A stretch of 64,000 nucleotides of DNA from Myxococcota bacterium (GCA_041687695.1 JAWLBL010000016.1:8622-72621), one strand, 5' to 3'. Numbered from the stretch's first letter, positions 30,903 through 49,339 are shown. The notes: generated by a model not told the origin, from the sequence alone. A program made the numbers and translations.

Positions 30903-31619
30903 ATGGACGGGTTCCTCTCCGACATCCTGATGTTCCCGACCGTGGTCTACACCCTGCTGCTCGGTTTCGCGGTGGTGTACTGGACCCTGGTCGTCGTGGG
31001 CGGCGCCGACATCGACGCGATCGACGTCGGGGGCGGCTTGGACGGCGCCGTCGATGGCGCCATCGAAGGGGCGATCGAAGGCGCGGTCGAGGGCGCGGCC
31101 GAGGCCGCCGCGGACGGCGCGCTCGACGGGGCCGAGGGCGGGCTCGCCGGCGTGCTCTCGGCGCTGCGCCTGCGCAAGATCCCGGTGACCATCAGCCTGA
31201 CCGCGCTGTCGAGCTGGGGCTTCGTCCTCAGCTACGTCGGCATGGCCACGCTCTCGCCGCTGATCGGCACCGGCTGGCTGCCCAGCCTCGCCGTCGGCGC
31301 CGGCAGCCTCGTCGGCGGCGTCGCCATGACGTCGCTGACGCTGCGGCCCTTCGGCCGCTTCTTCGAGACCCACGCTGCGCGCAGCAAGCACCACCTCATC
31401 GGCCACGTCTGCACCATCAGCACCGGCAAGGTGGACGCCCGCTTCGGCCAGGCCAGCTGCGAAGACGGCGGCGCCGGGCTCATCCTCAGCGTCCGCTACG
31501 AGGGCGAGGGCCCCCTGACCCGCGGCCAGCAGGCCCTCATAGTCGACTACGACCCCGCCCGCGACGTCTTCCAGGTCGAGCCCATGGACCCCCTGCTCGA
31601 GGACCGCCGCGTTGGCTGA
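30903..31619 (+). CDS. Membrane protein, YqiJ/NfeD-like (N-terminal TM helices plus C-terminal OB-fold-like domain)
   Basis: Three TM segments and an acidic GA(V/I)DGA(I/V)EG linker. C-terminal HLIGHVCTISTGKVDARFGQASCEDGGAGLILSVRYEGEGPLTRGQQALIVDY resembles the NfeD/DUF1449 beta domain. Confidence 0.45.
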   Translation: MDGFLSDILMFPTVVYTLLLGFAVVYWTLVVVGGADIDAIDVGGGLDGAVDGAIEGAIEGAVEGAAEAAADGALDGAEGGLAGVLSALRLRKIPVTISLTALSSWGFVLSYVGMATLSPLIGTGWLPSLAVGAGSLVGGVAMTSLTLRPFGRFFETHAARSKHHLIGHVCTISTGKVDARFGQASCEDGGAGLILSVRYEGEGPLTRGQQALIVDYDPARDVFQVEPMDPLLEDRRVG

Positions 31620-32907
31620 CGAAGAACTCGACGAGATTCACCACCGCTGGGGCCAGCGCGCCCTGTCGACCGGCCGGATCGCCGCCAGCGCGGTGCGCCT
31701 GGCCGGGCGCCGTCTGGTGGGCGCCGAGGGCGACGCCGACCGTCTCCTCGGCGAGCGGCTGGCGCGCGAGCTGGATGGCATGAAGGGCCTGGCCATGAAG
31801 GTCGGGCAGATCCTGAGCTACTTCGATGGCGTGCTGCCCGCCGAGACCCATGAGGCGCTGCGCAAGCTGCAGAAGGGGGCGCGGCCGGTCGCCTTCGAAA
31901 CGATGCGCCAGGAGATCGAGGAGGCGTTCGGGGAGCCGGTGTCCGCGCTGTTCGAGGCCTTCGACGACACACCGGTCGCGGCGGCGTCCATCGGGCAGGT
32001 CTACCGTGCCCGGTTCGAGCGCCGCGAAGTGGCCGTGAAGGTCCAGTATCCGCACGTCGAGAAGACCTTCGAGGCCGACTTCGGCCGCATTCGGAGCCTC
32101 GCGCGGCTGGCCTCGCTGGCGACGGCCGTCGACGGCGTGGCCATCGCCGATGAGCTGCGGGCGCGCGTGACCGAGGAGTGCGACTACCTACGCGAGGCCG
32201 CCTGGCAGGCTGCGTTCCGTGCCGCCTTCGCCGACGATCCCAGGATCGTGATCCCTGAGGTCGTGCAGGCCCGGACGCGTCGCACGGTCCTGACGACCGC
32301 GTGGGCCGCCGGGGACGACTTCTACGCGTTCGTCGAAGGCGCCCCAGCGGCCCGCCGCCACGAGGTGGGGCTGCTCCTCGCCCGCTTCGCGCTGCGCAGC
32401 CTCTTCGGTCTGGGCACGCTGAACGCCGACCCACACCCGGGCAACTACCTGTTCCCGCGTGACGAGGGTCACGTCGTCTTTCTCGACTTCGGCTGCGTCC
32501 GCCGCTTCGAGCCCGACTTCCTCGAGACCGAGCGCGCCCTGGTCGACGTCGTCATCCACGACCGTCGCGCCGCTTTCCGCGACGCCGTGATGGCGACCGG
32601 CATGATCCCCCAGCCGCGCAAGTTCGACTTCGACGTCCACTGGGACATGCTGCGCCACCAGTACGCGCCCTACGGGCAGCCGCGTTTTCGCTTCACGCCC
32701 GAGTACGTGCAGGCCGGAGCGAAGTTCAGCGGCCCGTCGAATCCCAACTTGCGGCGGCTCGCGATCCCGCCGGCCTGGATCTGGGTCCAGCGCCTGCTCT
32801 GGGGCCTGCACGCCGTGCAGGTGCGCCTTGGGGCCGAGGGTGCCTTCCGCGACGTGATGGAAGAGGCGTTGGCGACGCGCTTGCCGCCGCTGGCCGTACC
32901 GGCCTGA
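31612..32907 (+). CDS. ABC1/UbiB family atypical kinase
   Basis: MKVGQILS, AAASIGQVYRA and NADPHPGNYLF motifs. The TTG start overlaps the previous gene by 8 nt. Confidence 0.8.
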   Translation: MADEELDEIHHRWGQRALSTGRIAASAVRLAGRRLVGAEGDADRLLGERLARELDGMKGLAMKVGQILSYFDGVLPAETHEALRKLQKGARPVAFETMRQEIEEAFGEPVSALFEAFDDTPVAAASIGQVYRARFERREVAVKVQYPHVEKTFEADFGRIRSLARLASLATAVDGVAIADELRARVTEECDYLREAAWQAAFRAAFADDPRIVIPEVVQARTRRTVLTTAWAAGDDFYAFVEGAPAARRHEVGLLLARFALRSLFGLGTLNADPHPGNYLFPRDEGHVVFLDFGCVRRFEPDFLETERALVDVVIHDRRAAFRDAVMATGMIPQPRKFDFDVHWDMLRHQYAPYGQPRFRFTPEYVQAGAKFSGPSNPNLRRLAIPPAWIWVQRLLWGLHAVQVRLGAEGAFRDVMEEALATRLPPLAVPA

Positions 32908-32911
32908 GGGC

Positions 32912-33742
32912 CTACTCGGGCACGACGCACGTGCCGGCCTGGCAAGCGCCGGCACCCGCGGCGCACGGCGCTCCGTCGACCACGTCGACGAAGGCCTGCA
33001 CGGCCTGGCCCTTCGGCGTGCACACCCGGCACTCGTTCGCGGGGTCGGGATCGCCGTCCGCGAAGCAGCCGTCGTCGACGAAGCACGTGTCCGCCATCTG
33101 CTCGAAATCGCATGGATTCCTGGCGTTGTTCTGGCACACGCCCACCCAGCACGGCTTCATGGCCTCGACCTCGACGGGGCACTCGAAGGCCGTCACCTGG
33201 CACTGCCCCGAGACGCACTTCTCGCTGTGCGTGCATGGGTCGCCGTCGTCGCAACCGGGCGGCTGCGGGGGCAGCGTGACGACGCACTGCCCGGCGTCGC
33301 ACGTCGCCAGGTTGCAGGGCGCATGGACCCCCAGCGCGTCCAGGCAGTCCTGCCCGGTCACGCACTCGGGCGCGACGTCGGGGCCCTCGTCCGGGGCGCT
33401 CGCGTCGGCGTCGAGCGGACCGGTCTCAGGGGCCAGGTCCGCCGCAGCGATGTCGGCGTCGCTGGTCTCGGCGGGGCCCGGATCCGCCGCCACGTCCGGA
33501 GGTTCGACGGCGTCGGTCACGTCGGGCGGTGGTCGCTTGTTCACCTCGGACGCCGGCAGGCAGGCGGTCTGCTGGGGGTCCGCGACCAGGGGCGCGCAGA
33601 GGAAGCCCGAGGCGCAGTCGCTCTGGGTGGCGCACCGGAAGACCAGCGCGTCCAGGCCGAGGTCCTGCGAGCAGGCGCCGGCGAGGCCGGCGAACCAGGC
33701 GCCGGCCAGGCCGGTGAGCAGCGCGACCCGCGTCGAGCGCAT
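32912..33742 (-). CDS. Cysteine-rich lipoprotein
   Basis: Signal LLTGLAGAWFAGLAGACSQD. GCDDGDPCTHSEKC and many paired Cys. Confidence 0.65.
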   Translation of the reverse strand: MRSTRVALLTGLAGAWFAGLAGACSQDLGLDALVFRCATQSDCASGFLCAPLVADPQQTACLPASEVNKRPPPDVTDAVEPPDVAADPGPAETSDADIAAADLAPETGPLDADASAPDEGPDVAPECVTGQDCLDALGVHAPCNLATCDAGQCVVTLPPQPPGCDDGDPCTHSEKCVSGQCQVTAFECPVEVEAMKPCWVGVCQNNARNPCDFEQMADTCFVDDGCFADGDPDPANECRVCTPKGQAVQAFVDVVDGAPCAAGAGACQAGTCVVPE

Positions 33743-34767
33743 CAGAAGCTCCAGCCCGAGGTCACGACCGCGCCGCCGCCGAGCGGAGCCACCCCGAGCG
33801 TGGTCGCCGGCTCGTCGTCATCGCCGGCGGTGGCCAGCAGGATGACTCCCGTCAGCAGCGCCGCGCCGCCGGCCGCCAGACCGGCGATCCCCAGCGTGGC
33901 GAAGGTGTTCGCGTCGCGCTCGCGCTCGACGGCCTCGGCCTGGGTGAGCGAGGTCACCAGCCCCGACTCGCTGACGTCGGCCGAGCGCACGTCCTCGCGC
34001 AGCGAGTCGGCCCACCACATCAGGCCGCCGCCAGCGCCCGCGGCGACCACGCCCAGCGTGACCGCCGCCCAGCCGAACCCGGTCGAGGCGCTCGAGGCGG
34101 GACGCGAGGCGCGGCCGAACAGGGCCTCGCCCGCGGCCGGCAGCTGCACGAAGACCACCCGCTCGCTCGGCGCCGACGTGTTCGCCTCGCGCTCCGGCTT
34201 GCGCTCCGCCATCGCCCGCTCGAGCTCGGCGCGCATCTCCTCGCGCAGCTGCTCGCGTAGGCGCGCCTCGGCCGCCGCGAGCTTGGCCTCCTCCTCCTCG
34301 CGTCGCAGACGCTCGTCCTCGGCCCGCTGCTCGCTCTGCGCCTTCAGCGCGGCCGCGCGCTGCGCCTCGAGCTCGGCCAGGCGCCGCGCCTCGAGCGCCG
34401 CCTCGGCCTGGCTGAGCGCCTCGGCCGCCTTCGCGCGCAGCGCCGCCTCGGCCTCGGCGCGCGCCAGCAACGCCGTGAACCGCGCCTTGGCCAGCTCGGG
34501 GCGCCCGGCCAGCTGCCAGGCGCGTCCCGCGTTCCACAGCAACATCGGGTCGGGGTCCAGGGCGTAGGCCTCGTCGAAGGCCAGCGCGGCGCGCTCGTAA
34601 CGCTTGGCCTCGTAGTGGACCACGCCGACCTTGTACCACTCCTGGGCGCTGGTGGCGGCGGCCGTCGAGGCGGCGCGCGCGGCCGTGGGGAGCAGGGGCG
34701 GGGCGGCGCCGACCAGACCGGCCAGGGCCAGCGCCAGCGGCGCACGAACGAAGCGACGTCGCGACAT
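33742..34767 (-). CDS. Secreted TPR/coiled-coil protein with C-terminal membrane segments
   Basis: Signal MSRRRFVRAPLALALAGLVGAAP. TPR-like WYKVGVVHYEAKRYERAALAFDEAYALDPDPMLLWNAGRAW. Glu/Arg/Ala coiled coil, then hydrophobic Gly/Ala-rich C-terminus. Confidence 0.6.
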   Translation of the reverse strand: MSRRRFVRAPLALALAGLVGAAPPLLPTAARAASTAAATSAQEWYKVGVVHYEAKRYERAALAFDEAYALDPDPMLLWNAGRAWQLAGRPELAKARFTALLARAEAEAALRAKAAEALSQAEAALEARRLAELEAQRAAALKAQSEQRAEDERLRREEEEAKLAAAEARLREQLREEMRAELERAMAERKPEREANTSAPSERVVFVQLPAAGEALFGRASRPASSASTGFGWAAVTLGVVAAGAGGGLMWWADSLREDVRSADVSESGLVTSLTQAEAVERERDANTFATLGIAGLAAGGAALLTGVILLATAGDDDEPATTLGVAPLGGGAVVTSGWSF

Positions 34768-35372
34768 GCAGCGCAGCATAGCCGCGTCAGGTCGGGTCCG
34801 CCAGGGGGCACGCTGCCCGGATCGGCGCGCGGTGTCAGGGCGTCGCGAGGCGCTCGGGGTCTCTGAGGGGCCATTGCGGGCCGGCCGCGGGTGACCTAAC
34901 GTGGGCATCGGGACACGACGGGCGGCCGCCGGGGGGCGGTCACCAAGGGAGGGGGCAGGATGCATCGGTCGATCACGGGCCGGGGGCTCGTCCTTGCGCT
35001 GCACGCCATGGCGTTGGCCTCGGTGGCTTGTAGCCCCGTGGTGCTCGAGCCGGACACAACCTCGGACATCCACGCGGACGCCAAGGAGGCCGACGCGGTC
35101 CCGGAGCCCGGCGTGGACGTCGGCGGGACGGACGCCGGGGCCGGCGGTGAAGACGCCCAGTATTGGTACGGCACCGACATTCCCATCGGGCCCACCGGCC
35201 CGGTGCCGAGCAGCCACCACTTCTGCGCGGCCGGGGGGCGCTACGACGCCAGCGGCGACGTCACCGGCTGGAGCTGCCTGGGCCCCGGCCCCCTGTCCGT
35301 CGGTCCGGCCAGCGGCGGCGGCGTGCTGTGGCTGCCCGGTCCCATCTTCCACGTGGCCCCGTGAGGACTGAA

Positions 35373-37148
35373 ATGCGTACGATCCGTCACAGCTTCGCCG
35401 CGGCGCTCGTGACCGCGCTGCTCGTCGCGCCTGCGGCGCACGCCCAGGTCCCCGGGACCCTGGTCCACCAGGGCCGCCTGCTCGACGCGAGCGGCGTCGG
35501 TCTCAACGGCATCAAGCCGCTGGTCTTCAAGATCTACGACCAGGAGACCGGGGGCGACCCGCTGTACACCGAGACGCGCAACGCCAAGCTCTCCAACGGC
35601 TTCTACACCGAGACCCTGGGCCAGGGAGGCGACGCGCCGATCGACCCGGCGCTGCTGACGTCGGGGACCCTGTGGCTCGAGCTGACGGTCAATGGGCAGG
35701 CGCTGACGCCGCGTCACCGCATCGAGAGCGTCCCCTACGCGATCCTCGCCAACACGGCGGTCAACGTGGACGGCGGGTACGTGGACGCGACCAGCATCAG
35801 CATCAACGGCACCCCGATCGTCGACGAGGCCGGCCAGTGGGTCGGCTCGGGCGGCCCCGGGGGCGGCACCCTGGACGCGCTCGCGTGCTCGGTGGGGCAG
35901 GTGCCCAAGTGGGTCGGGGGCGAGACCGGCTGGGCGTGCGGCGACGACGTCGACACCGACACCGACACCGATACCGACACGCTGGCGGCCCTGGCCGAGG
36001 AGTGCACGCTGGGGCAACACCCGGCGTTCAACGCCATGACGGGGCAGTGGGTGTGCTGGGATTGGGAGAACCCGCTGGAACAGATCGGGTGCGAGCTCGG
36101 CGAGGTCTTGATGTCACACCCCGATGGCTGGGGCTGTGGTGCGATCGCGCCCGCGACCGACACCCTGGCCACGTTGCCCTGTGGTCCGCAGCAGGTCGCC
36201 AAGTGGGAGACGACCGGCTGGGAGTGCGCCGCGGACGCAGACACGCTGGGTCTGTTGGGCTGCCCACCGGGCCACTTTCCGGTGCGGGGCGAGAGCGATT
36301 GGACGTGCGTGGAGTACGACGCGACCGAGCTGCTCGAGGACCTCGCGTCCAGCTGTCCGGATGGGTCGGTGCTGCGCTGGCAGACCGACCCGGGGTTCTG
36401 GACCTGCAGCCCGGACCAGGACAGCTTCGCCTGGATGGCGTGCCAGGACGGGGATCTGATGAGGTTTCAAGACGGCGGCTGGCAGTGCTCGATCCAGGAC
36501 GCCGACACGCTCGCCGTCACGTTCTGCCCGGAAGGCTGGGTCTTGAAGTCGCAGCCGCAGGACGCCATCAAGCCCTGGGACTGCGCACCGGACGAGGACC
36601 AGGACACCCTCGGCAAGCTCAAGTGCGGGCCCACCGAGCGCGCCGGCTGGGACGAGGTGGAGGGCCTGTTCACCTGCGTCGAGGACCGCGACACGTTGGC
36701 CAAGACGCCGTGCAGCGACGGCAACATCCTGCGCTTCGACAACGGCCAGAAGAAGTGGGTCTGCAGCAACGACATCGACACCAACACGGATCTGTTGGCC
36801 ACCCTCGGCTGCGGCGAAGGGCGCATCCCCAAGCGGTACGATGGCGTCTGGGAGTGTCATCTGGACGAGGTCCGCACCGACGCCGAGATCCGGCAGGCCG
36901 TCTCGGCCCAGCCGATCGCGCTGCAGGCGGGCTCGACCGTGGGCGGGGTGGTGCTGGGCGCCGGTGTGCCGGTGGGCACCCGGATCGTCTGGTGGGACAC
37001 CTTCGGCAACCAGGCCTTCCCGCCGGGCTACCTGCCGGCGGGCGCGCTGGTCGAAGACCCCAACAGCCCGCTCTACAACCGGACGCTGCCCGAAGCCGGC
37101 GAGGCCCCGCCCTCCGAGCACTACGTCCTGTACAAGGTCCTGGACTGA
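35373..37148 (+). CDS. Secreted protein with about nine tandem ~30-aa two-cysteine repeats, hypothetical
   Basis: Signal MRTIRHSFAAALVTALLVAPAAHA with a GAGGA RBS. The repeat units (DTLATLPCGPQQVAKWETTGWECAADA, DTLGLLGCPPGHFPVRGESDWTCVEYDA and similar) each carry an invariant W and two Cys. Confidence 0.65.
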   Translation: MRTIRHSFAAALVTALLVAPAAHAQVPGTLVHQGRLLDASGVGLNGIKPLVFKIYDQETGGDPLYTETRNAKLSNGFYTETLGQGGDAPIDPALLTSGTLWLELTVNGQALTPRHRIESVPYAILANTAVNVDGGYVDATSISINGTPIVDEAGQWVGSGGPGGGTLDALACSVGQVPKWVGGETGWACGDDVDTDTDTDTDTLAALAEECTLGQHPAFNAMTGQWVCWDWENPLEQIGCELGEVLMSHPDGWGCGAIAPATDTLATLPCGPQQVAKWETTGWECAADADTLGLLGCPPGHFPVRGESDWTCVEYDATELLEDLASSCPDGSVLRWQTDPGFWTCSPDQDSFAWMACQDGDLMRFQDGGWQCSIQDADTLAVTFCPEGWVLKSQPQDAIKPWDCAPDEDQDTLGKLKCGPTERAGWDEVEGLFTCVEDRDTLAKTPCSDGNILRFDNGQKKWVCSNDIDTNTDLLATLGCGEGRIPKRYDGVWECHLDEVRTDAEIRQAVSAQPIALQAGSTVGGVVLGAGVPVGTRIVWWDTFGNQAFPPGYLPAGALVEDPNSPLYNRTLPEAGEAPPSEHYVLYKVLD

Positions 37149-37266
37149 ACGCTCGCGGTGCCCCGGCGCCCCGGCTTGACGATGGCCGGGGTGACGGGCT
37201 ACTCCATCCGGCATCACGGCCCGGGCCCCCACCACGCGCCCTCCAACCGCCGTCCAGAGGAACCCC

Positions 37267-39471
37267 ATGATGCTCGAGCCCGCCCTCCTCGTCGCCATCG
37301 GCGCAGGCATCCTGACCGTCGCCACCATCGGCATCATCCTGGCCAAGTTCCACCGCAAGGTGAACCAGGGCCAGGCGCTGATCGTGAACAAGATGTCCGG
37401 CGAGCCGGTAGTGACCTTCACCGGCGCGAACGTGCTGCCCATCATCTACCGCGCCGAGGTGATGGACATCTCGCTCAAGACCATCGAGCTCGAGCGCCGC
37501 GGCAAGGAGGGGCTCATCTGCCGCGACAACATCCGCGCGGACATCAAGGTCACCTTCTTCGTGCGGGTGAACAAGACGGCGGAGGACGTGCTGAAGGTCG
37601 CCCAGGCCATCGGGTGCGCCCGCGCCTCGGACCAGCGGACGCTCGAAGAGCTGTTCATGGCCAAGTTCTCCGAGGCCTTGAAGACCGTCGGCAAGCGGCT
37701 CGAGTTCGTCGAGCTGTACGAGAAGCGCGACGAGTTCAAGGACGAGATCATCAAGGTCATCGGCCAGGATCTGAACGGCTACGTGCTCGAGGACGCGGCC
37801 ATCGACTTCCTCGAGCAGACGCCGCTCGAGAGCCTGGACAAGGACAACATCCTCGACGCGCAGGGCATCAAGAAGATCACCGAGCTGACGGCCGTGCAGG
37901 CGATCCTGACCAACGACTTCAAGCAGCAGGAGCGCAAGGCCATCAAGAAGCAGGACGTCGAGGCGGAGGAGACGATCCTGGAGCTCGAGCGGCAGCAGGC
38001 GGACGCCGAGGCCAAGCAGAAGCGCGAGATCGCGACCATCCGGGCGCGCGAGGAGGCCGAGGTCCTGCGGGTGCAGAACGAGGAGCGGGCCAAGGCGGAG
38101 CTGGCGCGCATCAAGGCCGAGGAGGAGGTCCACGTCTCGGAGCAGAACAAGGCGCGGCAGATCGAGGTCGCGCAGAAGAACCGGCAGCGCGTGGTCGGCA
38201 TCGAGACGGAGCGGGTCGAGAAGGACCGGGCGCTCGAGGCCATCGCGCGCGAGCGGGAGGTCGAGCTGCAGCGCATCCAGAAGGAGAAGGAGCTGGAGGT
38301 GCAGCGCAAGGAGATCGCGGACATCGTGCGGACGCGCATCTCGGTCGAGAAGACGGTGGCGGTCGAGGAGGAGACCATCAAGGATCTGCGGGCGACGGCC
38401 GAGGCCAAGCGCCACAAGGACGTGACCATCATCGCGGCCGAGGCCGAGGCGCAGCAGGATCTGGTCAAGAGCATCAAGGCGGCCGAGGCCAGCGAGGAGG
38501 CGGCCAAGTTCAAGGCGCGCGAGCGGCTGACCATCGCGGACGCCGAGCTCGAGGCGGCCGACAAGCACGCGAAGGCGAAGATCCGGCTGTCCGAGGGCAT
38601 CCAGGCCGAGACGGCGGCGTCGGGGCTGGCGCAGGTGCGGGTCAAGGAGGCCGACGCGGTGGCCAGCGAGAAGCAGGGAATGGCGCAGGCGCGGGTCAAG
38701 CTCGAGCAGATGCAGGCCGAGGCGTCGGGGCTCGAGAAGCAGGGCCTGGCCAAGGTGAAGGTGCAGGAGGCCGAGGCGGACGCCATCCAGAAGAAGGGTC
38801 TGGCCGAGGCGACGGTGGCCAAGGAGCTGATGCTGAGCGAGGCGGCCGGCGCGCAGGAGCGGGGCCTCGCCGAGGTGCGGGTCGAGGAGGCCAAGGCGGC
38901 GGCGATCGAGAAGCGCGGCGAGGCCGAGGCGAAGGCGATCAGGGACAAGCTGGTCGCCGAGGCGGCGGGTCTGGCCGAGAAGGCGACGGCGATGAAGGCG
39001 CTGGACGGGGTGGGGCGCGAGCACGAGGAGTTCCGCCTCAAGCTCGAGCAGCAGAAGGACATCGCCCTGGCGCAGATCCGGGCGCGCCAGGAGATCGCGC
39101 GGGCGCAGGCCGAGATCCTGCGCGAGGCCTTCGGACACGCGAAGATCAACATCGTGGGCGGCGATGGGCAGTTCTTCGACCGCTTCATCAAGTCGATCTC
39201 GCTGGGCCAGTCCATCGACGGGCTGGTCGACCAGAGCGAGGCGGTGCAGAAGATCTTCGGCGGCTACCTGTCGGGTGAGCAGAGCCTGACGGGGGATCTC
39301 AAGGACGTGCTGTCGCGGCCGGCGCTGTCGAGCGACGCGGTGAAGGACCTGACCATCACGGCGCTGCTGTCCAAGCTGATGGTCGGCGCCGACGAGCCCG
39401 TGAGGGACAAGATCATGAAGCTCATCGGGCAGGCCAAGGCGCTCGGCATCGACTCGATCGCGGCAGGCTGA
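37267..39471 (+). CDS. Flotillin family (SPFH/band-7) protein, long YqiK-like form
   Basis: N-terminal TM helix, then an SPFH domain (ALIVNKMSGEPVVTFTGANVLPIIYRAEVMDISLKTIE...), then a long E/A/K/R-rich coiled coil with EA repeats and a flotillin C-terminus. Confidence 0.85.
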   Translation: MMLEPALLVAIGAGILTVATIGIILAKFHRKVNQGQALIVNKMSGEPVVTFTGANVLPIIYRAEVMDISLKTIELERRGKEGLICRDNIRADIKVTFFVRVNKTAEDVLKVAQAIGCARASDQRTLEELFMAKFSEALKTVGKRLEFVELYEKRDEFKDEIIKVIGQDLNGYVLEDAAIDFLEQTPLESLDKDNILDAQGIKKITELTAVQAILTNDFKQQERKAIKKQDVEAEETILELERQQADAEAKQKREIATIRAREEAEVLRVQNEERAKAELARIKAEEEVHVSEQNKARQIEVAQKNRQRVVGIETERVEKDRALEAIAREREVELQRIQKEKELEVQRKEIADIVRTRISVEKTVAVEEETIKDLRATAEAKRHKDVTIIAAEAEAQQDLVKSIKAAEASEEAAKFKARERLTIADAELEAADKHAKAKIRLSEGIQAETAASGLAQVRVKEADAVASEKQGMAQARVKLEQMQAEASGLEKQGLAKVKVQEAEADAIQKKGLAEATVAKELMLSEAAGAQERGLAEVRVEEAKAAAIEKRGEAEAKAIRDKLVAEAAGLAEKATAMKALDGVGREHEEFRLKLEQQKDIALAQIRARQEIARAQAEILREAFGHAKINIVGGDGQFFDRFIKSISLGQSIDGLVDQSEAVQKIFGGYLSGEQSLTGDLKDVLSRPALSSDAVKDLTITALLSKLMVGADEPVRDKIMKLIGQAKALGIDSIAAG

Positions 39472-39475
39472 CGGG

Positions 39476-42400
39476 GTGGCCGCCGCCGCGCCCAGCGCGA
39501 AGGTCGCGGCCTCGGCGGCGAGCGCCGAGGTCGACACCGGCAACTACGAGGTCATCCGGGGGCGCCTCGGCGCCCTCGCGAAGGAGCTCGGCGCCAAGGC
39601 CGAGGCGCTCAACGCGCGCCGCAAGGAGGTCTTCGGCGGCACCGAGCTGACGGTCGTCGGCAACGAGCGCGTCCGGACCGAGCACAACTGCGTCCCGCGC
39701 GACATCGTCAACGCCGGCGGGCACCTGCTGTTCGGCTTCAACGTCTTCTTGGGCCTGAAGACGGAGACGCGCATCGAGGACGTCTTCGGGCTGTACCGGC
39801 TGGGCCGCACCGAGCAGGGCTGGGATCTGGAGGCCGAGCCGTTCGGCGCGCTGCCGGGGTTCCTGGACCACCCGAACTTCGTCAAGGAGTTCCGCGAGCT
39901 CGTCAACTACTACAAGGACGCGCGGCTGATGCAGCTGCGCGCCAGCGAGACGCGGCTGCTGGCGGTGTTCCAGACCGGCAACTCGCCCAAGGACATCCGC
40001 GTCTTCCGCTGGGGCCTGGACCCCAAGCGCCGCCCGACCTACCTCGACAACCGTGGCGAGCGCGACCACGTCTACCCGCCCTCGCACGACTTCACCTGGA
40101 CCGCGACGACCCGCGAGCAGCACGTCCAGGGGCGCCATCCGCACATCAACCTCCTCGACCAGGTCTTCGTCGAGACCGTCGGCGGTGACCTGACGGTCAA
40201 GGTCGAGGACAACACCGAGGAGGGCCAGGGCGTCTACAGCGAGCCGGTCGACGACGCGAACCAGTCGCTCGACGACGCGCAGGTCTACTACGCCCGGGTC
40301 GGGACGCTCATCCTGCTGAAGGTGCTGCCCTACCGCGAGCAGGTCTGGCGCCATCTGGTCTTCAACACGCGCACCCACCACGTGGTGCGCATCGACGCCA
40401 TCGGCCAGGCCTGCGTCCAGCTGCCCGAGGACCACGGCATCATCTTCCCCGGCGGCTACTACCTGCAGTCGGGCGACTTCAAGGTCTTCGACGGCGACCT
40501 GTCGGACCTCGAGTTCAAGCGCATGCTGCGCTCGCCCAACGGCGAGGACGTCCTGTACGTCTTCCACCGCCGGGTCGAGGGCAGCTACGTGCTGTTCCCG
40601 TACAACCTCATCGACAAGCAGATCCGCACGGCCATCCACGCGCACGGCTACTCGCTGTTCGATGACGGGACCCTGGTCATCTTCCGCAACACGGGCAGCG
40701 AGCCGACCCGCGTCCACCCGCTGCAGATCTGGCAGACCCCCTTCACGTCCGCCGAGTTCCACGCCGCCGTCCCGACCGACGGGTCGTTCCTGTCCAAGGT
40801 CGGCAACGCCGATCTGGTCCGCGGCATCTCGGACGTCCTCAGCGTCCGGCGGCTCATCGAGCAGGACAGCCCCAACCGGCAGATCTACGAGGACCTCATC
40901 GCCGCGGCGACGCGCGTGATGGACGCCTACTACTGGCTGGGCAGCGACGAGGTCGGTGATCTCGCGACCTCGCTCAAGGCGGTGCGCCAAAACGCCGAGC
41001 TCATCGTCGACGAGTTCGAGAAGGTCCTGGTGCTGCGGCAGCGGGCCGCCGAGGCCCTGGCCGAGGCCGCCGAGGCCAAGCTGGTCCTCGAGCGGGATCT
41101 GCGCCCCGAGGGGTGGCGCTCGGTCGAGCCGTTCATGAACGCGCTGGCGGCCATCCGCTCGCAGCGCGGGCACGTCATCACGCTCGGCGAGGTGCGCTAC
41201 ATCGATCGGGACCAGCTGGGACGCCTCGAGGCCGAGCTGGTCGCGCACTTCGACCGCGTGTCGAAGGCAGCGGTCGAGTTCCTGCTGCGCGACGACGCCC
41301 TGCAGCCGCTGGCCGAGCAGCTCGAGGGCCTGCTGGGGCGCATCGAGGGGGTGCAGAAGACGCCGGACGTGCCGCCGCTGCGTGAGCAGCTCGAGCGCAC
41401 GAGCGAGGGGCTGAACGTCCTGACCGAGGTGGTCGGCGCGCTCGAGATCGAGGACCCGAGCGCGCGCACGCGCATCCTCGAAGGCATCAGCGAGCTGTTC
41501 GGGCAGGTCAACCGCGTCCGCGCGACCCTCGAGCGGCGCCGCAAGGAGCTGGCCACGGCCGAGGGGCGCGCCGAGTTCGCCGCGCAGTTCCGGCTGTTCT
41601 CGCAGGCGGTCTCGAGCGCCCTGACCATCGCCGACACGCCGGAGCGCTGTGACGAGCAGCTCTCGCGCCTGATGGTGCAGCTCGAGGAGCTCGAGGGCCG
41701 CTTCGGCGAGCTGGACGCCTTCATCAGCGATCTGGCGACCAAGCGCGAAGAGGTCTACGAGGCCTTCGAGGCCAAAAAGCAGGCCCTGCTCGACGAGCGC
41801 CAGCGCCGGGCGTCCAGCCTGTTCGACGCCGCCGATCGCATCCTGCAGGGGATCGCGCGGCGCGCCCGCGGCTTCAAGACCGCCGACGAGCTGAACGCCT
41901 ACTTCGCCTCGGACGCGATGGTCGCCAAGCTGCGGCAGATCGCCGAGCAGCTGCTGGCCCTGGGTGACAGCGTCAAGGCCGACGAGCTCGGGTCGCGCCT
42001 GAAGTCGACGCGGCAGGAGGCGGCCCGCGCGCTGCGCGACAAGTCCGAGCTGTTCGACGGCGACGACGCGGTCATCAAGCTGGGGCGGCACCGGTTCAAC
42101 GTCAACACGCAGCCGCTCGAGCTGACGATGGTGCCGCGTGGCGACCGCATGGCGCTGCACCTGACCGGCACCGACTACTACGAGCTCATCGAGGACGCGG
42201 CTTTCGAGGCGACGCGTGACTTCTGGTCGCAGCAGGTCGTCAGCGAGACGCCCGAGGTCTATCGCGGCGAGTACCTGGCGGCGACCCTGCTGTTCGACGC
42301 CGTGGCGGGCCAGGGCGGGGCGTCGCTCCAGAGGCTGCACGAGGCGGCGCGGGCGCCCGGAGGCCTGGCCGAGCTGGTGCGCGCCGCCGCGGCCAGCCGC

Positions 42401-44809
42401 TACGACGAGGGCTACGAGCGCGGGCTGCACGACGCGGACGCGACGCTGATCCTGGAGAAGCTGCTGAGCCTGTGGGACACGGCGGGGCTGCTGCGCTTCT
42501 CGGCGCCCGCGCGGGCGCTGGGCTGCCTGTTCTGGGCCTTCGCGCCCCATGAGAGCGAGCTGAGCGCCGCCTGCGCCGCCTGGCATCGACGCGCGACCAG
42601 CTATGGGCGGCTGCGCGCGGCCTTCGGGCAGGGGGCGCCGCTGCGGGCGTTGGGCGGCGAGCTGGGGCGGGCGATCGCCGAATTTGCTGCGGCGCACCAT
42701 ATCGCGTGCGATGTGACGACCGCCGGGCTGGCGGGGCAGTACCTGGCCGAGGAGCTGACCGCCGAAGCGCCGCGTTTCGTGAGCAGCGCCGACGCAGATC
42801 GGCTGGTGCATCTGCTGGTCGAGGCGCTGGACCGCGCCGGCGAGCGCGCGGCGTTCGAGGCCGACCTGACGGTGCTGGAGGGGCGGCACGCGGCCCGGTT
42901 GGCGCTGGCGCGCGAGTGGCTGGCGGGGTTCGTGGCGTCGAGCCAGGACGAGCGGGTGACGGTGCTGCACGCGGCCATCGAGGAGGCGGCGACGCTGCTG
43001 GTCACCGCCGAGCGCCTGGACCGTCAGACCTCGGCAGCGCGCGGCTCGGCCGAGGTGACGGGCCTGCTCGGGCAGCACCCGCGCATCGCCGAGCGCAAGA
43101 TGACGCTGCGCCTCGACGAGGTGCTGGCGCGGCTGACCGCCTTCGTCTCGGAGCGGGTTCCGGGGTACCGCGCCTATCGCGTGACGGTGCGCGAGCTGCT
43201 CGAGCGCGAGCGGGCGCGGCTGCGCCTCGACGAGCTGATGCCGCGGGTCCTCAGCTCGTTCGTGCGCAATCGCCTCATCAACGAGGTCTACCTGCCGATC
43301 CTGGGTGACAACCTGGCCAAGCAGATCGGCGCGGTGGGCGACGCCAAGCGGACCGATTTGAACGGCCTGCTGCTGCTCATCTCGCCGCCCGGCTACGGCA
43401 AGACGACGCTGATGGAGTACGTCGCCAGCCGACTGGGGCTGGTCTTCGTCAAGGTCAACGGCCCGGCGCTGGGGCACGGCGTGACCTCCATCGACCCGGC
43501 CGAGGCGCCGAACGCGACGAGCCGGCAAGAGGTCGACAAGATCAACCTGGCGCTCGAGATGGGCAACAACGTGATGCTCTATCTCGACGACATCCAGCAC
43601 ACCCACCCGGAGCTGTTGCAGAAGTTCATCAGCCTGTGCGACGGGCAGCGGCGCATCGAGGGCGTCTGGAAGGGCAAGACGCGCACCTACGATCTGCGCG
43701 GCAAGAAGTTCTGCGTGGTGATGGCGGGCAACCCGTACACCGAGTCGGGCGACAAGTTCCAGATCCCCGACATGCTGGCCAACCGCGCCGACACCTACAA
43801 CCTGGGTGACATCCTGGACGGCAAGGCCGACGCCTTCGCCCTGAGCTACATCGAAAACGCCCTGACCTCGAACCCGACGCTGGCGCCGCTGGCGGGGCGC
43901 GACCAGCAGGACGTCTACAAGCTCATCAAGATGGCGCGCGGCGAGCAGGTCGCGACGACCGAGCTGTCCTACGGGTACTCGGCGGTCGAGCTGAACGAGC
44001 TGCGCGCGACCTTCCAGCACCTCTTCGCGGTGCAGGAGGTCCTGCTGAAGGTCAACCTGCAGTACATCGCCTCGGCCAGCCAGGACGACGCCTACCGCAC
44101 CGAGCCGCCCTTCAAGCTGCAGGGCAGCTACCGCAACATGGCCAAGCTGGCTGCCAAGGTCGCCCCGGCGATGAACCCGGACGAGCTGCAGGCCCTCATC
44201 GACGACCACTATGTCGGCGAGGCCCAGACCCTGACCACGGGCGCCGAGGCCAACCTGCTGAAGCTGGCCGAGCTGCGCGGGCGCTCGACCCCCGAGCAGG
44301 CCGCCCGTTGGGCCGAGATCAAGAAGGGGTTCGCCCGCGTGCAGCTGATGGGCGGCAAGGAGGACGATCCGGTCACCCGCGTCACCGGCCAGCTGTCGGC
44401 GCTGTCGGACCAGGTCTCGCTGCTGCGCGACGCGCTGATCGCCGCGCTGCGGGATGCTGCGGTGCACAAAACGGCCGGGGCGGCCTTCGACCCGAGCAGC
44501 CTCGAGCCGGTCGTCGCCCGCCTGGACCAGGCGCTGCGCCAGCTGGCCACGCCTCAGCTGGACGTGAACGTCACCACGCCGCCGCTGGACGTTGGGCGTC
44601 TGTCGGCGCTCATCGACGCGCAGGTGCAGGCGATCCAACAGACGCTCTTGCCCATCGCCCACTCGGCGGCCCGCAACCTCGAGACCGGCCAGGACATCGG
44701 CCGCCGCCTGACCATCCTGGTCGACCAGCTGCTGGGCGAGCAGCAGCGCCGCGCGACCGTGCCGACGCCGACGGGCGCGCCCAAGCCGAGGGTGAAGCCG
44801 CAGCCGTGA
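39476..44809 (+). CDS. Giant (1777 aa) protein with C-terminal MoxR/AAA_5-like ATPase domain; N-terminal 1250 aa are unknown
   Basis: Walker A LLLLISPPGYGKTTLMEY. Walker B and sensor region VMLYLDDIQHTHPELLQKFISLCDGQRRIEGVWKGKTRTYDLRGKKFCVVMAGNPYTE follows the MoxR/dynein AAA_5 pattern. The start lies 5 nt after the flotillin stop. Confidence 0.8.
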   Translation: MAAAAPSAKVAASAASAEVDTGNYEVIRGRLGALAKELGAKAEALNARRKEVFGGTELTVVGNERVRTEHNCVPRDIVNAGGHLLFGFNVFLGLKTETRIEDVFGLYRLGRTEQGWDLEAEPFGALPGFLDHPNFVKEFRELVNYYKDARLMQLRASETRLLAVFQTGNSPKDIRVFRWGLDPKRRPTYLDNRGERDHVYPPSHDFTWTATTREQHVQGRHPHINLLDQVFVETVGGDLTVKVEDNTEEGQGVYSEPVDDANQSLDDAQVYYARVGTLILLKVLPYREQVWRHLVFNTRTHHVVRIDAIGQACVQLPEDHGIIFPGGYYLQSGDFKVFDGDLSDLEFKRMLRSPNGEDVLYVFHRRVEGSYVLFPYNLIDKQIRTAIHAHGYSLFDDGTLVIFRNTGSEPTRVHPLQIWQTPFTSAEFHAAVPTDGSFLSKVGNADLVRGISDVLSVRRLIEQDSPNRQIYEDLIAAATRVMDAYYWLGSDEVGDLATSLKAVRQNAELIVDEFEKVLVLRQRAAEALAEAAEAKLVLERDLRPEGWRSVEPFMNALAAIRSQRGHVITLGEVRYIDRDQLGRLEAELVAHFDRVSKAAVEFLLRDDALQPLAEQLEGLLGRIEGVQKTPDVPPLREQLERTSEGLNVLTEVVGALEIEDPSARTRILEGISELFGQVNRVRATLERRRKELATAEGRAEFAAQFRLFSQAVSSALTIADTPERCDEQLSRLMVQLEELEGRFGELDAFISDLATKREEVYEAFEAKKQALLDERQRRASSLFDAADRILQGIARRARGFKTADELNAYFASDAMVAKLRQIAEQLLALGDSVKADELGSRLKSTRQEAARALRDKSELFDGDDAVIKLGRHRFNVNTQPLELTMVPRGDRMALHLTGTDYYELIEDAAFEATRDFWSQQVVSETPEVYRGEYLAATLLFDAVAGQGGASLQRLHEAARAPGGLAELVRAAAASRYDEGYERGLHDADATLILEKLLSLWDTAGLLRFSAPARALGCLFWAFAPHESELSAACAAWHRRATSYGRLRAAFGQGAPLRALGGELGRAIAEFAAAHHIACDVTTAGLAGQYLAEELTAEAPRFVSSADADRLVHLLVEALDRAGERAAFEADLTVLEGRHAARLALAREWLAGFVASSQDERVTVLHAAIEEAATLLVTAERLDRQTSAARGSAEVTGLLGQHPRIAERKMTLRLDEVLARLTAFVSERVPGYRAYRVTVRELLERERARLRLDELMPRVLSSFVRNRLINEVYLPILGDNLAKQIGAVGDAKRTDLNGLLLLISPPGYGKTTLMEYVASRLGLVFVKVNGPALGHGVTSIDPAEAPNATSRQEVDKINLALEMGNNVMLYLDDIQHTHPELLQKFISLCDGQRRIEGVWKGKTRTYDLRGKKFCVVMAGNPYTESGDKFQIPDMLANRADTYNLGDILDGKADAFALSYIENALTSNPTLAPLAGRDQQDVYKLIKMARGEQVATTELSYGYSAVELNELRATFQHLFAVQEVLLKVNLQYIASASQDDAYRTEPPFKLQGSYRNMAKLAAKVAPAMNPDELQALIDDHYVGEAQTLTTGAEANLLKLAELRGRSTPEQAARWAEIKKGFARVQLMGGKEDDPVTRVTGQLSALSDQVSLLRDALIAALRDAAVHKTAGAAFDPSSLEPVVARLDQALRQLATPQLDVNVTTPPLDVGRLSALIDAQVQAIQQTLLPIAHSAARNLETGQDIGRRLTILVDQLLGEQQRRATVPTPTGAPKPRVKPQP

Positions 44810-44873
44810 GACGCGGGTCGGCCGAATGGGGCCGGCGCGCGGGCGCCATGGGGCGTCATCTGGGGGGGACGCG

Positions 44874-45437
44874 ATGCGACAGCGCCTCGTCGGCTTCGAC
44901 ACGCGGGTGGCCATCGAGCAGGCGGCTGTAGATTGGCAGGACGCGGAGCGACGCAGGCGCTATCTGTTGCGCGACGTGCGCCGGCCGTTGTCCATCGACG
45001 AGGCGGTGTGGCTGCGGCGGGACACGTCATGCGTGCCGGGGCTCGGAATCCGGATCGAGACGCCGCGGTCTTGGCGTCTGGCTGACGCGCTGGCGGAGGC
45101 CACCGACCAGGAGACCGTCGTCGCCTTCAGCGTGCTCGTGGGCCCCAGGGAGCCCGAGTTCATGCCGTGGCTGACGCCGCCCGAGCTGAGCTCGATCGAT
45201 GCGCGATGGGAGTTCCTGGGCTGGGACATCGCCGAGAACGCCTTCCCCAGCGCGCTGACCAACTGCGGGTACGAGCCCGACGAGCGCGAGGCGTTGTCCG
45301 CGCGATTCGGCGCGGCGCTGAACGATCACCACCTCTTCGGTGAACTTGCGCCCGCCCTGGCCTGCCGGCGCGCTCAGGAGGCGCGGATCCTCGAGCATGG
45401 TCCGTGGGCCGTCTTGGGCCTTTATCGCGTGCGGTGA
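44874..45437 (+). CDS. Hypothetical protein (187 aa)
   Basis: ORF with a G-rich RBS, 64 nt downstream of the giant ATPase. No recognisable motif. GC3 is slightly lower than the host genes. Confidence 0.45.
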   Translation: MRQRLVGFDTRVAIEQAAVDWQDAERRRRYLLRDVRRPLSIDEAVWLRRDTSCVPGLGIRIETPRSWRLADALAEATDQETVVAFSVLVGPREPEFMPWLTPPELSSIDARWEFLGWDIAENAFPSALTNCGYEPDEREALSARFGAALNDHHLFGELAPALACRRAQEARILEHGPWAVLGLYRVR

Positions 45438-45623
45438 GGCCTCTCATCCGCTCGATACTTCGGGAAGTGCCGGGCCAGCGGGGCGGTCGCCGATCGCATT
45501 CCGTGGCATGAGGTCAGCGCGCAGGGTCCGGGTGAGCACTTGTAAGTGGTTGAATTGATAGCCGTAAGGAGGTTGGGTCGATTTTTCTTGTGCCCGCCTC
45601 TTGATGCGTGAACGCTTGTTCAG

Positions 45624-45659
45624 GCATGCTGGCCGACCCTTCATGGAGGACCAGCATGC
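45624..45659 (+). promoter_or_regulatory. Stem-loop sequestering the RBS and start codon of the HNH gene
   Basis: Perfect 9-bp inverted repeat GCATGCTGG ... CCAGCATGC; the loop contains GGAGGA and the second arm contains the ATG. Confidence 0.45.
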
Positions 45660-47695: not shown

Positions 47696-47895
47696 CCGGT
47701 GAGGCCTGGCCGGTTGACCCCCGCGCGGGCCTTGCTACAACGTCGGCACATGCAACACGTCGACCGGCGTGCGCTCGAACCTACGGAAACCGGCGGGGAG
47801 TTGGTGCGGCAACTGCGGACGGGATGGAATCAGTTCTGTTGCGAGTCTGGCGTCTGCACAAGCAGCGGCTCTCAGCGTCCGTGAGCGGGTGACCC

Positions 47896-48366
47896 TTGGC
47901 GCTCGTCCTCAAGCCGCCGGTCGCGCTATGGGACCTCGCCCGGTTTGCCGGGCGGGTCGCCTTTCTGGCCGGCAGCATCGAGATGGGCGCCGCCGAGGAC
48001 TGGCAGGCGCGGGTCGAGGCCGACCTGTCGGACCTGGACGCGCTGCTGTTGAACCCGCGCCGTGATGACTGGGACAGCGGCTGGGCGCAGTCGATGGACC
48101 ACCCGCACTTTCGAGCGCAGGTCGAGTGGGAGCTGGAAGGGCTCGAGCGGGCCGATGTCGTGGCGATGTATCTGGTGCCGGGCACCAAGGCGCCCATCTC
48201 GCTGTTGGAGCTGGGCCTGGTGGCGGCCAGCGGACGCCTGGTCGTCTGCTGTCCCGAGGGTTTTTGGCGCAAGGGCAACGTGGACGTGGTCTGCGCGCGC
48301 TACGGCGTCGCTCGCGTGCCGGACCTGGCAGCGCTGACGACCGAGCTGCGACGGCGGCTGGCCTGA
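47896..48366 (+). CDS. Nucleoside 2-deoxyribosyltransferase-like protein
   Basis: RVAFLAGSIEMG...WDSGW...QVEWELEGLERADVVAMYL...PISLLELGLVAASGRLVV follows the NDT/Rcl-like flavodoxin-fold pattern. Start is a non-ATG codon (TTG). Confidence 0.6.
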   Translation: MALVLKPPVALWDLARFAGRVAFLAGSIEMGAAEDWQARVEADLSDLDALLLNPRRDDWDSGWAQSMDHPHFRAQVEWELEGLERADVVAMYLVPGTKAPISLLELGLVAASGRLVVCCPEGFWRKGNVDVVCARYGVARVPDLAALTTELRRRLA

Positions 48367-48375
48367 CGCATCGGG

Positions 48376-49338
48376 TCAGGCGATGTCCAGGTCCTCGAGC
48401 ACCTTGCGCGCCGCCGTGTCGCGGGCCTGTACGTCGTCACTGGCCAGGTCGCGGCGCACGGTCTCGGCGTCGTCGTCGGAGGCGCCGCCGGCCTCGCGCA
48501 GCAGCGCCTCGAGCGCCGGCGGCGTGCGCGGGTCGTCGAGGTGGTTGGCGAGCAGCGAGACGACCGCCCAGACCAGGTCGAAGCCGGTCGACATGGCGAG
48601 CAGCGGCGCCTGCAGGTCGCGTTCGTCGGGGGCGGCTTGCGCGGCCTCGAGCAGGTCACGCGCGGGCGAGGCCTGGAGGTCGACGGCGGCCGCGAGCAGG
48701 CCGTCGGTCGGCGAGCCGCCGGCGTCGAGCGTGCGGATGACGCTCTCGAGGCGCTTGGCGCCCATCGTCCGCAGGCAGGGCAGATCGGCGCCCAGGGCGA
48801 CCTTCATCAGGCCCAGCGGCTGCCAATGACCCTGCGCCTGGCCCGTGGCGCCGCGCAGGGCGACGAGCGCATCGGCGGCGTTCAAGCGCACCAGCGCGTG
48901 GGAGTCGCCCAGGGCGGTGAAGAGCGCGGCGTCGGTCGCCGGGCCCGGGAAGTCGGCGAGCGTCCGCGCCGCGGTGGCGCGCTGCGACCAGGCGCCGGTG
49001 CGCAGGGTCTCGAGCACCGCCTGGAGCGCGGCGTCGTCGCCGCCCAGGGACTGCAGGGCTCGAGCTACGGCGACCCTGGCCGCGCCGGGACCGAGGCGCG
49101 CGAGCGCGTCCTCGAGGGTCTGTCGCGCACGAGGCGAGCCGAGGATGGCCAGGGCCTCCGCGGCGCGGCCGTCGTTTTCGTCGCGGAGCTTGGCGACGAG
49201 CAGGTCTTCGGCCTGGTCGCGCTCGTCACCGGTCAAACGCCGGAGCGCCTCGAGGTCCAAGCCGTCGAAGCGCTCGCGGGCGCCATCGGCTTCGAGGCTC
49301 CTGCGGAAGCGATCGAACGCGGGGCTGACCGCCGCCAT
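48376..49338 (-). CDS. HEAT-repeat (PBS-lyase-like) protein
   Basis: Repeated ALGDSHALVRLNAADALVAL-type HEAT units. Its start lies 2 nt after the stop of the upstream DUF4157 gene. Confidence 0.6.
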   Translation of the reverse strand: MAAVSPAFDRFRRSLEADGARERFDGLDLEALRRLTGDERDQAEDLLVAKLRDENDGRAAEALAILGSPRARQTLEDALARLGPGAARVAVARALQSLGGDDAALQAVLETLRTGAWSQRATAARTLADFPGPATDAALFTALGDSHALVRLNAADALVALRGATGQAQGHWQPLGLMKVALGADLPCLRTMGAKRLESVIRTLDAGGSPTDGLLAAAVDLQASPARDLLEAAQAAPDERDLQAPLLAMSTGFDLVWAVVSLLANHLDDPRTPPALEALLREAGGASDDDAETVRRDLASDDVQARDTAARKVLEDLDIA

Positions 49339-49339
49339 A

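Follow-up and report, generated by a model that had tools for sequence, protein, structure and literature searches.

The 64,000-nucleotide (nt) stretch of Myxococcota bacterium DNA examined here, referred to below as the window, carries at positions 37267-45437 a flotillin gene, a gene for a giant ATPase placed directly behind it, and a small open reading frame (ORF). Together with a gene for a YqiJ/NfeD-like membrane protein, which in this window lies further upstream, the flotillin and ATPase genes make up a three-gene membrane module that is widespread and is represented here by one copy. The G+C content of the window is about 72%, and at third codon positions (GC3) it reaches 0.96-0.97 in the frames of both the flotillin ORF and the giant ORF, which marks both as real genes. 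The window is a piece of ordinary chromosome, with genes for DnaX, RecQ, HflX, AmtB, GreA and citrate synthase as well as tRNAs and a signal recognition particle (SRP) RNA. Gene calls were taken from the public record of the contig (GCA_041690335.1, JAWLHM010000013.1).

The first gene of the pair (37267..39471, + strand) encodes a flotillin of the YqiK/FloT type with a length of 734 amino acids (aa), identified by a Band_7 match, by alignment with YqiK and by synteny. Its N-terminal 244 aa match the Band_7/SPFH family of Pfam (E=1.8e-10), the protein shares 30% identity with YqiK of E. coli (E=5e-41), and a comparison of its family profile with YqiK gave a probability of 99.9% across aa 8-460. 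The polypeptide begins with a transmembrane segment or hairpin (aa 1-29), the only transmembrane-like segment detected by hydropathy analysis, which is followed by basic residues, an SPFH/Band_7 domain (approximately aa 31-230), a long Glu/Ala-rich coiled coil and a C-terminal region bearing a conserved IDIVGGDG-FF motif and then a variable tail. As the basic residues succeed the N-terminal transmembrane segment, the bulk of the protein is predicted by the positive-inside rule to be cytoplasmic.

When searched at full length, this flotillin matched no Pfam family at E<=0.01, and the precomputed Pfam list of the public record is likewise empty; a Pfam search with the C-terminal 145 aa gave no match to the Flot domain. 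The miss on the whole protein is perhaps an effect of the HMMER composition filter on the Glu/Ala-rich coiled coil. Since the Band_7 domain is seen only when the N-terminal fragment is used as a query, automated annotation can overlook flotillins of this kind.

The TGA codon of the flotillin gene ends at position 39471 and the GTG start codon of the ATPase gene begins at 39476 (39476..44809, + strand; 1777 aa). A reading of this DNA made earlier from the sequence alone (the sequence-only reading) had emphasised the tight coupling of the two genes, and they are indeed adjacent, co-oriented and conserved as a pair, only that the gap between them measures 4 nt and not the 5 nt given at that time. 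The two genes are almost certainly co-transcribed. The GTG start codon is supported by a conserved G-x-YEVIR sequence at residue 22, the same position as in the family consensus.

Pfam assigned aa 37-486 of the ATPase to DUF3686 (E=9e-208) and aa 607-691 to DUF7902 (E=1.5e-26). The N-terminal 1250 aa had previously been said to match nothing recognisable; they contain these two named families, both of unknown function. More than 6,500 homologous clusters (at 90% identity) exist, which are about 57-65% identical along the full length and are named ‘DNA repair ATPase’, ‘AAA family ATPase’ or ‘MoxR-like ATPase’ in databases. With the first 500 aa of the ATPase as the query, 780 relatives were retrieved from 1.84 billion representative sequences. 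All the full-length ones comprise 1.6-2.0 thousand aa and have DUF3686 at the N-terminus, which indicates that the family has one architecture. No transmembrane segment was found in the ATPase by hydropathy analysis, and we consider it a cytoplasmic protein.

An AlphaFold2 model of aa 1-1200, based on 81 sequences (mean predicted local distance difference test score, pLDDT, of 85), divides this part of the protein into five: a helix (aa 24-53), an all-beta region (about aa 59-420), long helices (aa 426-858), a beta element (aa 882-904) and a helical region (aa 930-1180). The all-beta region (39650..40735, + strand), with the helix at aa 24-53 ahead of it, is modelled as a beta-propeller of approximately seven four-stranded blades. 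It carries many invariant residues, including those of the sequences SPNGEDVLY and HP-Q-WQTPF. In the PDB, Foldseek matched the propeller to the clathrin terminal domain with linker (5ods, E=1.7e-5), Elp1, prolyl oligopeptidases, PON1 and WD40 proteins; the TM-scores are low and the likeness of the modelled domain to these proteins is one of fold only. The long helices that follow (aa ~426-858; 40751..42049, + strand) include DUF7902 and are predicted to form a rod that resembles tandem spectrin repeats. The rod is joined to the AAA+ module by the small beta element (aa ~882-904) and a helical-bundle domain (aa ~930-1180; the two spanning 42113..43033, + strand), modelled with block pLDDT values of about 71-96. 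No specific structural match was found for the helical-bundle linker.

The AAA+ module (aa ~1265-1540; 43268..44095, + strand) is of the MoxR class, as judged from Pfam, AlphaFold2 and Foldseek. AAA_5/AAA matches cover aa 1299-1422, with an AAA_5 score of 30.6 bits against a cutoff of 22. In the AlphaFold2 model of aa 1201-1777 (pLDDT 83), a beta-hairpin (aa ~1393-1406, model residues 193-206) is placed between Walker B and sensor 1, and a lid and a long helical tail come next. The best structural overlap obtained with Foldseek was that with NorQ and CbbQ (NorQ hexamer 9qh4, E=8.5e-7, TM-score to target of 0.61; CbbQ 6l1q), and the assignment of the C-terminal part to a MoxR/AAA_5-type ATPase, made in the sequence-only reading, is confirmed. 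The Walker A (GYGKTT), Walker B (LYLDD) and sensor 1 (MAGNP) motifs and a candidate Arg finger (LANRAD) are all invariant in 70 homologues, and for this reason the ATPase is likely to be active. The protein ends with a helical/coiled-coil tail (aa ~1541-1777; 44096..44806, + strand), delimited by the secondary structure of the model and by conservation per 100 aa; its first half is conserved and its last ~150 aa are poorly conserved.

With the MoxR family (NorQ/NorD, CbbQ/CbbO, RavA/ViaA) the window ATPase shares the AAA_5 match above the cutoff, the hairpin ahead of sensor 1 and the NP...(I/L)P..L..R pattern, to which its sensor 1 and Arg motifs conform. Unlike these proteins, it is fused to an N-terminal portion of ~1,250 aa (propeller, rod and helical domain) and to a coiled-coil tail, has DD in Walker B and lacks a VWA partner gene. 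Its sequence similarity to the family is marginal, and a sequence search of the PDB gave P-loop-level matches only.

The strongest evidence for a module comes from related loci. Relatives of the ATPase were sought by scanning one genome per species, and the best 80 of at least 568 were kept with 10-kb flanks on each side; they represent Myxococcota, Actinomycetota, Gammaproteobacteria, Acidobacteriota and Planctomycetota. The presence of genes in these 80 loci was determined by tblastn with the window proteins and also by all-against-all clustering of every ORF. A flotillin gene lies immediately 5' of the ATPase gene in 76 of them. By tblastn, the flotillin N-terminus was found in 76 and the C-terminus in 77 loci, always on the same strand as the ATPase; in one locus (L077) the contig is cut inside the flotillin gene and only the C-terminus is visible. 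Two of the four exceptions (L020, L058) are contigs which begin at the ATPase gene. Another, a metagenome-assembled genome of Labilithrix sp. (L073) with an ATPase of 1929 aa, has no flotillin gene within 10 kb upstream. In the last one, Myxococcales bacterium 68-20 (L014), the flotillin gene is located ~6.4 kb upstream of the ATPase gene and is separated from it by four ORFs (621, 765, 312 and 168 aa). The latter two cases may represent second paralogous copies or further insertions.

A homologue of the YqiJ-like gene was found directly 5' of the flotillin gene in 70/80 loci by tblastn and in 73/80 by ORF clustering. Only three widely conserved real genes emerged from the clustering, namely those of the ATPase (80 loci), the flotillin (77) and the YqiJ-like protein (73), the remaining large clusters being shadow ORFs within the big genes. 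In 13 loci the flotillin gene runs 4 nt into the ATPase gene, and in most loci fewer than 150 nt lie between the flotillin stop and the ATPase start. The distance matrices of the three proteins correlate pairwise across 70 loci (r=0.93, 0.89 and 0.87, calculated with no species-tree control; Mantel p=0.001 for ATPase versus flotillin), which is consistent with inheritance of the genes as a unit. The ATPase itself is ~50% identical over ~1,700 aa between phyla. According to plasmid records, the module is also carried by Deinococcus and Hymenobacter, and on a Streptomyces linear plasmid the gene order is hypothetical protein, ‘flotillin family protein’, ‘DNA repair ATPase’.

As the adjacency recurs in 76 of the 80 loci and in at least five phyla, the pairing is far more than a chance association. 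The sequence-only reading had made its proposal depend on the conservation of the pair across genomes, and this conservation is evident. It had also proposed an energised, membrane-anchored complex; given a pair that is conserved, co-oriented and tightly spaced, a functional and probably physical link between the two proteins, and with it a membrane-associated energised complex, is a reasonable expectation.

The YqiJ/NfeD-like protein of the window (30903..31619, + strand; 238 aa) was recognised from its translation, hydropathy and profile comparison. It is composed of an N-terminal transmembrane segment, an acidic Gly/Ala/Asp/Glu linker, two further transmembrane helices and, at the C-terminus, an OB-like beta domain. 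When 25 family members were combined into a profile, this aligned with E. coli YqiJ (hhalign probability 91.8%, E=7.4e-7) across the second and third transmembrane segments and the OB domain. None of the 25 members scanned had a Pfam match, and sequence and profile searches of the PDB gave no match. Hydropathy and the positive-inside rule place the bulk of this protein in the cytoplasm. The sequence-only reading had noted such a gene about 6 kb away and treated it as a partner that is not adjacent. The gene is present, at a distance of ~5.6 kb; it is the normal third member of the module and the first gene of the conserved trio, displaced in the window by an insertion.

Hinderhofer et al. (2009, PMC2636767) established that the NfeD-like proteins YqiJ and YuaF are partners of SPFH2 flotillins. 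The features of an SPFH2 flotillin are all present here: the SPFH domain, the EA-rich coiled coil and the NfeD-like partner, the last of these displaced. Like the two-gene operons yqiJ-yqiK of E. coli and yuaF-floT (yuaG) of B. subtilis, the module combines an NfeD-like OB membrane protein with a flotillin in which an N-terminal anchor precedes the SPFH domain and the EA-rich coiled coil. It differs from yqiJ-yqiK in having an ATPase gene and a flotillin that is ~180 aa longer, whose C-terminal ~270 aa do not align with YqiK.

The insertion between the YqiJ-like and flotillin genes (31612..37148, ~5.6 kb) was delineated from Pfam matches and gene calls. It contains genes for an ABC1/UbiB-type kinase (31612-32907, + strand), a 276-aa hypothetical protein (32912-33742, - strand), a TPR protein (from 33742, - strand), a 134-aa ORF (34960-35364, + strand) and a secreted protein bearing a signal peptide as well as Cys-containing DTDT repeats (~35374-37148, + strand). 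No homologue of any of these proteins was found between the YqiJ-like and flotillin genes in the 80 loci, and the ABC1 kinase had only one match, elsewhere in locus L023; the 276-aa, TPR and secreted repeat proteins had no counterpart anywhere in these loci. In the closest relative (P0002, 65% identity) the trio is unbroken (257 aa - 754 aa - 1805 aa). The absence of the block genes from other loci and the intact trio of this relative together indicate that the insertion is lineage-specific. The ABC1 kinase, the TPR protein and the secreted repeat protein were each considered as parts of the module and were rejected, being absent from other loci.

The start of the ABC1 kinase gene overlaps the stop of the YqiJ-like gene by 8 nt, and because of this overlap they may have become co-translated. 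Between the YqiJ-like gene and the flotillin gene lie 5.6 kb with two genes on the opposite strand, and the former is therefore not expected on the flotillin/ATPase transcript. A weak TTGACG-like promoter had been suggested just upstream of the flotillin gene. This sequence (37176-37181) sits in the loop of a G+C-rich hairpin 3' of the upstream gene, and a consensus scan of positions 30500-46000 revealed no sigma-70-like promoter. The locus demonstrates that the YqiJ-like gene can move out of the operon; otherwise it adds little beyond one more member of the family.

In Gammaproteobacteria the trio was found in longer gene arrays, which are PspA/IM30 envelope-stress operons. Genes for DUF2170 (YjfI-like) and PspA/IM30 proteins lie directly upstream of the trio in 15 gammaproteobacterial loci, and rhomboid and PLD/HKD-family genes are placed directly 3' of the ATPase gene in 7-8 of the loci from this class (including L033 and L038). 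On pQBR103, a well-studied megaplasmid of P. fluorescens SBW25 (NC_009444.1 85112-97641), the array consists of genes for PspA/IM30, rhomboid, DUF2491, DUF350, DUF1190 and glutathionylspermidine-synthase-like proteins, a hypothetical protein in the YqiJ-like position, the SPFH protein and the ATPase. In effect, the yjf-type operon of E. coli has here been fused with the trio, and the plasmid provides a convenient experimental entry point. The rhomboid and PLD genes adjoining the ATPase gene, and the rhomboid gene beside PspA on pQBR103, suggest that the extended gammaproteobacterial system includes the processing of lipids or membrane proteins.

The operon architecture was presented in the sequence-only reading as one that could not be named, but it has been described in silico. 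Ravi et al. (2024, mSystems, PMC11237479; preprint 2020) reported operons in which CesT/Tir-PspA is combined with three further genes, some of them with PLD, as well as widely distributed abbreviated operons without PspA, and drew from context the same inference of a role in membrane stress as we do. The trio operon is already recognised by comparative genomics and is not new. Its components correspond to those found here, i.e. a band-7/flotillin protein, a YqiJ/YuaF protein and a beta-propeller AAA+ protein, and the gammaproteobacterial relatives match the full form (DUF2170/CesT-like, PspA, PLD). Of the features that define the class, the window has a flotillin with a transmembrane segment, a band-7 domain and a coiled coil, and a propeller AAA+ gene directly after it. 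It departs from the full operon in being an abbreviated form with neither the CesT/Tir-PspA dyad nor PLD, and in its split-off YqiJ-like gene, an arrangement unseen in the other loci. The equivalence rests on matching architecture and neighbourhood and not on shared accessions; the supplement of that study gave no useful match for DUF3686, YqiJ or propeller. Apart from this study, no relevant paper turned up in literature searches on DUF3686 (PF12458), on flotillin together with ‘DNA repair ATPase’, or on MoxR together with SPFH.

Downstream of the ATPase gene lies a 187-aa ORF (44874..45437, + strand, according to the public gene call; 203 aa if counted from the first ATG at 44826). It matched nothing in Pfam, NCBIfam or PADLOC and is absent from all 80 loci. 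Its sole homologue among 5.8 billion proteins (45% identity) is located in an unrelated context, beside a LigD Prim-Pol gene, and the ORF, an orphan, was rejected as a fourth component. The sequence-only reading had drawn attention to this small ORF and to the secreted repeat protein upstream of the flotillin gene; both exist, but neither belongs to the module (0/80 loci).

Elsewhere in the window, a stretch on the - strand (2456-3956) contains the bacterial small SRP RNA (2456-2544), followed by four tRNA-Ser genes (GGA, CGA, GCT, TGA) and a tRNA-Arg gene (ACG). Large proteins encoded at 8654-10357 (- strand), 24766-26766 (+ strand) and 50772-53018 (- strand) contain repeats best known from eukaryotes; the repeat types found in them are Dicty_CTDC, thrombospondin type 3, the MopE-like metal-binding motif and lamin-tail domains.

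Beyond the orphan ORF, the region 45608-50794 encodes a 695-aa HNH protein, a nucleoside 2-deoxyribosyltransferase-like protein (47896-48366), a HEAT-repeat protein (48376-49338, - strand) and an eCIS_core protein (49340-50794, - strand), and it could be a small toxin or conflict islet. These neighbours bear on the possibility that the module serves in anti-phage defence or abortive infection, in which the ATPase would sense infection and the flotillin and YqiJ-like proteins would be the membrane effector. In its favour, conflict systems often contain large STAND/AAA-like ATPases equipped with propeller sensors, some megaplasmids carry the module, and PspA was originally discovered as a phage-shock protein. 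However, none of these downstream genes, the HNH, deoxyribosyltransferase-like and eCIS_core ones included, accompanies the module elsewhere (0/80 loci), and a tblastn search of 50,697 phage records detected no copy of it. In PADLOC-DB v2, the ATPase gave only noise over 29-33 residues (IetA, E=0.003, on the P-loop; LmuB, E=0.007, on a coiled-coil region), and the flotillin and the small ORF had no match. The conserved set contains no nuclease, toxin or pore effector, and ~50% identity over ~1,700 aa between phyla, together with one fixed architecture, is unlike fast-diversifying defence genes. With PADLOC noise, no phage copies and no conserved defence neighbours, we rejected a defence system as the principal explanation, and the defence role raised in the sequence-only reading seems improbable. 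The secretion role mentioned in the same place is also disfavoured, as the ATPase has no transmembrane segment and no secretion components are conserved nearby.

The name ‘DNA repair ATPase’ implies yet another explanation, i.e. that the protein acts in DNA repair and adjoins the flotillin by chance. In Pfam the description of DUF3686 reads ‘ATPase involved in DNA repair’, and the corresponding name is used by PGAP. There are weak matches to the P-loop of RuvB (E ~1e-3, far under the cutoffs), and RuvB (7x5b) is among the Foldseek matches of the AAA+ model with an E-value similar to that of NorQ. But the name has no traceable experimental basis, no supporting literature was found, and Pfam detected no DNA-binding or nuclease domain in the protein. 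The RuvB models of NCBIfam cover 43 residues and reach 18 and 17 bits, where the cutoffs are 282 and 299. The likeness to RuvB is generic to the AAA+ fold, with an overlap below that of NorQ (TM-score to target of 0.39 versus 0.61). Synteny with two membrane proteins and with PspA operons counts against a role at the DNA and rules out chance adjacency. As the RuvB matches extend to the P-loop only and the literature lends no support, DNA repair was dismissed, and we regard it as extremely improbable. The database name agrees with neither the domains of the protein nor the surroundings of its gene.

Based on our observations, we tentatively suggest that the ATPase docks on a flotillin/YqiJ scaffold and remodels this scaffold during membrane stress, a proposal which we hold to be quite possible, if somewhat short of probable. 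According to this proposal, the flotillin, aided by its YqiJ-like partner, would oligomerise at the cytoplasmic membrane and form an SPFH cage or patch on its inner face. The ATPase would hexamerise via its AAA+ module and be recruited to the scaffold. The propeller at the end of the rod would be the binding head, plausibly for the C-terminal segments of the flotillin, and ATP hydrolysis would then assemble, open or dismantle the scaffold. In operons that include PspA/IM30, its ESCRT-III-like polymer might be a target as well. The overall role would be the sensing and repair of membrane stress, and the ATPase would act in the manner of Vps4 on ESCRT-III or of MoxR proteins pulling on a partner complex. 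The proposal draws on the conserved and co-inherited trio, the cytoplasmic placement of its products, the invariant catalytic motifs, the propeller on its rod and the envelope-stress operons with PspA. An SPFH protein is known to link PspA to the membrane in B. subtilis (2025 review, PMC7619361).

The main rival to this proposal, conceivable but in our opinion somewhat less likely, is that the flotillin/YqiJ scaffold only concentrates the ATPase at a membrane microdomain, while the propeller takes third-party clients, such as damaged or unassembled membrane-associated proteins, for the AAA+ module to unfold, extract or mature. Conserved synteny and cytoplasmic localisation fit this explanation equally, and the closest structural matches, NorQ and CbbQ, act on specific client complexes. 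Moreover, the propeller surface is highly conserved whereas the flotillin tail is variable, which fits a conserved ligand other than flotillin better and favours the client explanation somewhat. SPFH cages commonly partner AAA+ proteases, as in HflK/C-FtsH and prohibitin-m-AAA. On the other hand, no conserved fourth gene that could encode a client was found in the 80 loci, and Pfam detected no protease or other effector domain in the ATPase. The similarity to HflK/C-FtsH and other SPFH-cage/AAA+ pairs consists in an SPFH scaffold being paired with a hexameric AAA+ protein at the cytoplasmic membrane and is an analogy only: FtsH is a membrane-anchored, classical-clade protease within a periplasm-facing cage, whereas the window ATPase is soluble, of the MoxR class and protease-less, and the bulk of its flotillin is cytoplasmic.

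Several points weigh against remodelling of the flotillin scaffold by the ATPase. The flotillin C-terminal tail, the proposed docking site, is weakly conserved, and the correlation of distances within the trio takes no account of the species tree. Walker B has DD and not DE (aa 1370-1371, window 43583-43588), and this is invariant in 70 homologues across phyla; hydrolysis may be slow or switch-like, or the catalytic residue may come from elsewhere. MoxR ATPases normally act with a VWA/MIDAS partner, yet none was found among the window neighbours, and the 80 loci share no fourth gene. In E. coli and B. subtilis, flotillins function in the absence of an ATPase of this type. The yqiJ-yqiK locus of E. 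coli K-12 has no ATPase gene after yqiK, and blastn with an Enterobacterales query found no copy of it in 5,426 E. coli genomes, a search that divergent copies could escape. No gene in the 64-kb window has a PspA_IM30, DUF2170 or PLDc match. Finally, no experimental work on any member of the trio was found in the literature.

A bolder version of the scaffold-remodelling proposal is that the DUF3686 ATPase constitutes the missing bacterial uncoating or recycling motor: a hexameric MoxR-class ring with six propeller heads on spectrin-like arms, which would grip flotillin cages, and PspA polymers where these occur, and disassemble or reshape them at the expense of ATP. We consider this unlikely, although worth stating. 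A Vps4-like ATPase appears to be absent in bacteria (2025 review, PMC7619361). Like Vps4/ESCRT-III and PspF/PspA, the module couples an ATPase genetically to a membrane-remodelling polymer, as seen in the PspA/IM30 operons of Gammaproteobacteria and pQBR103. Unlike them, the window ATPase has no MIT domain, belongs to another AAA+ clade and has no sigma-54 activator domain, so the parallel is functional speculation and not homology. If the uncoating-motor idea were true, the family would be a bacterial functional counterpart of Vps4 or of the clathrin-uncoating machinery, and it would explain how flotillin microdomains can be dynamic.

What flotillins do in bacteria is still a matter of debate, and the dynamic formation and clearance of SPFH cages and of PspA/ESCRT-III-like polymers still call for an explanation. 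The ATPase is strongly conserved, is encoded almost always beside a flotillin and its NfeD-like partner and often within PspA operons, which makes it an obvious candidate for the energy-consuming part of the flotillin/PspA membrane machinery. The interest therefore lies not in this particular locus of a Myxococcota bacterium but in the family as a whole, as a candidate source of energy for flotillin and PspA dynamics.

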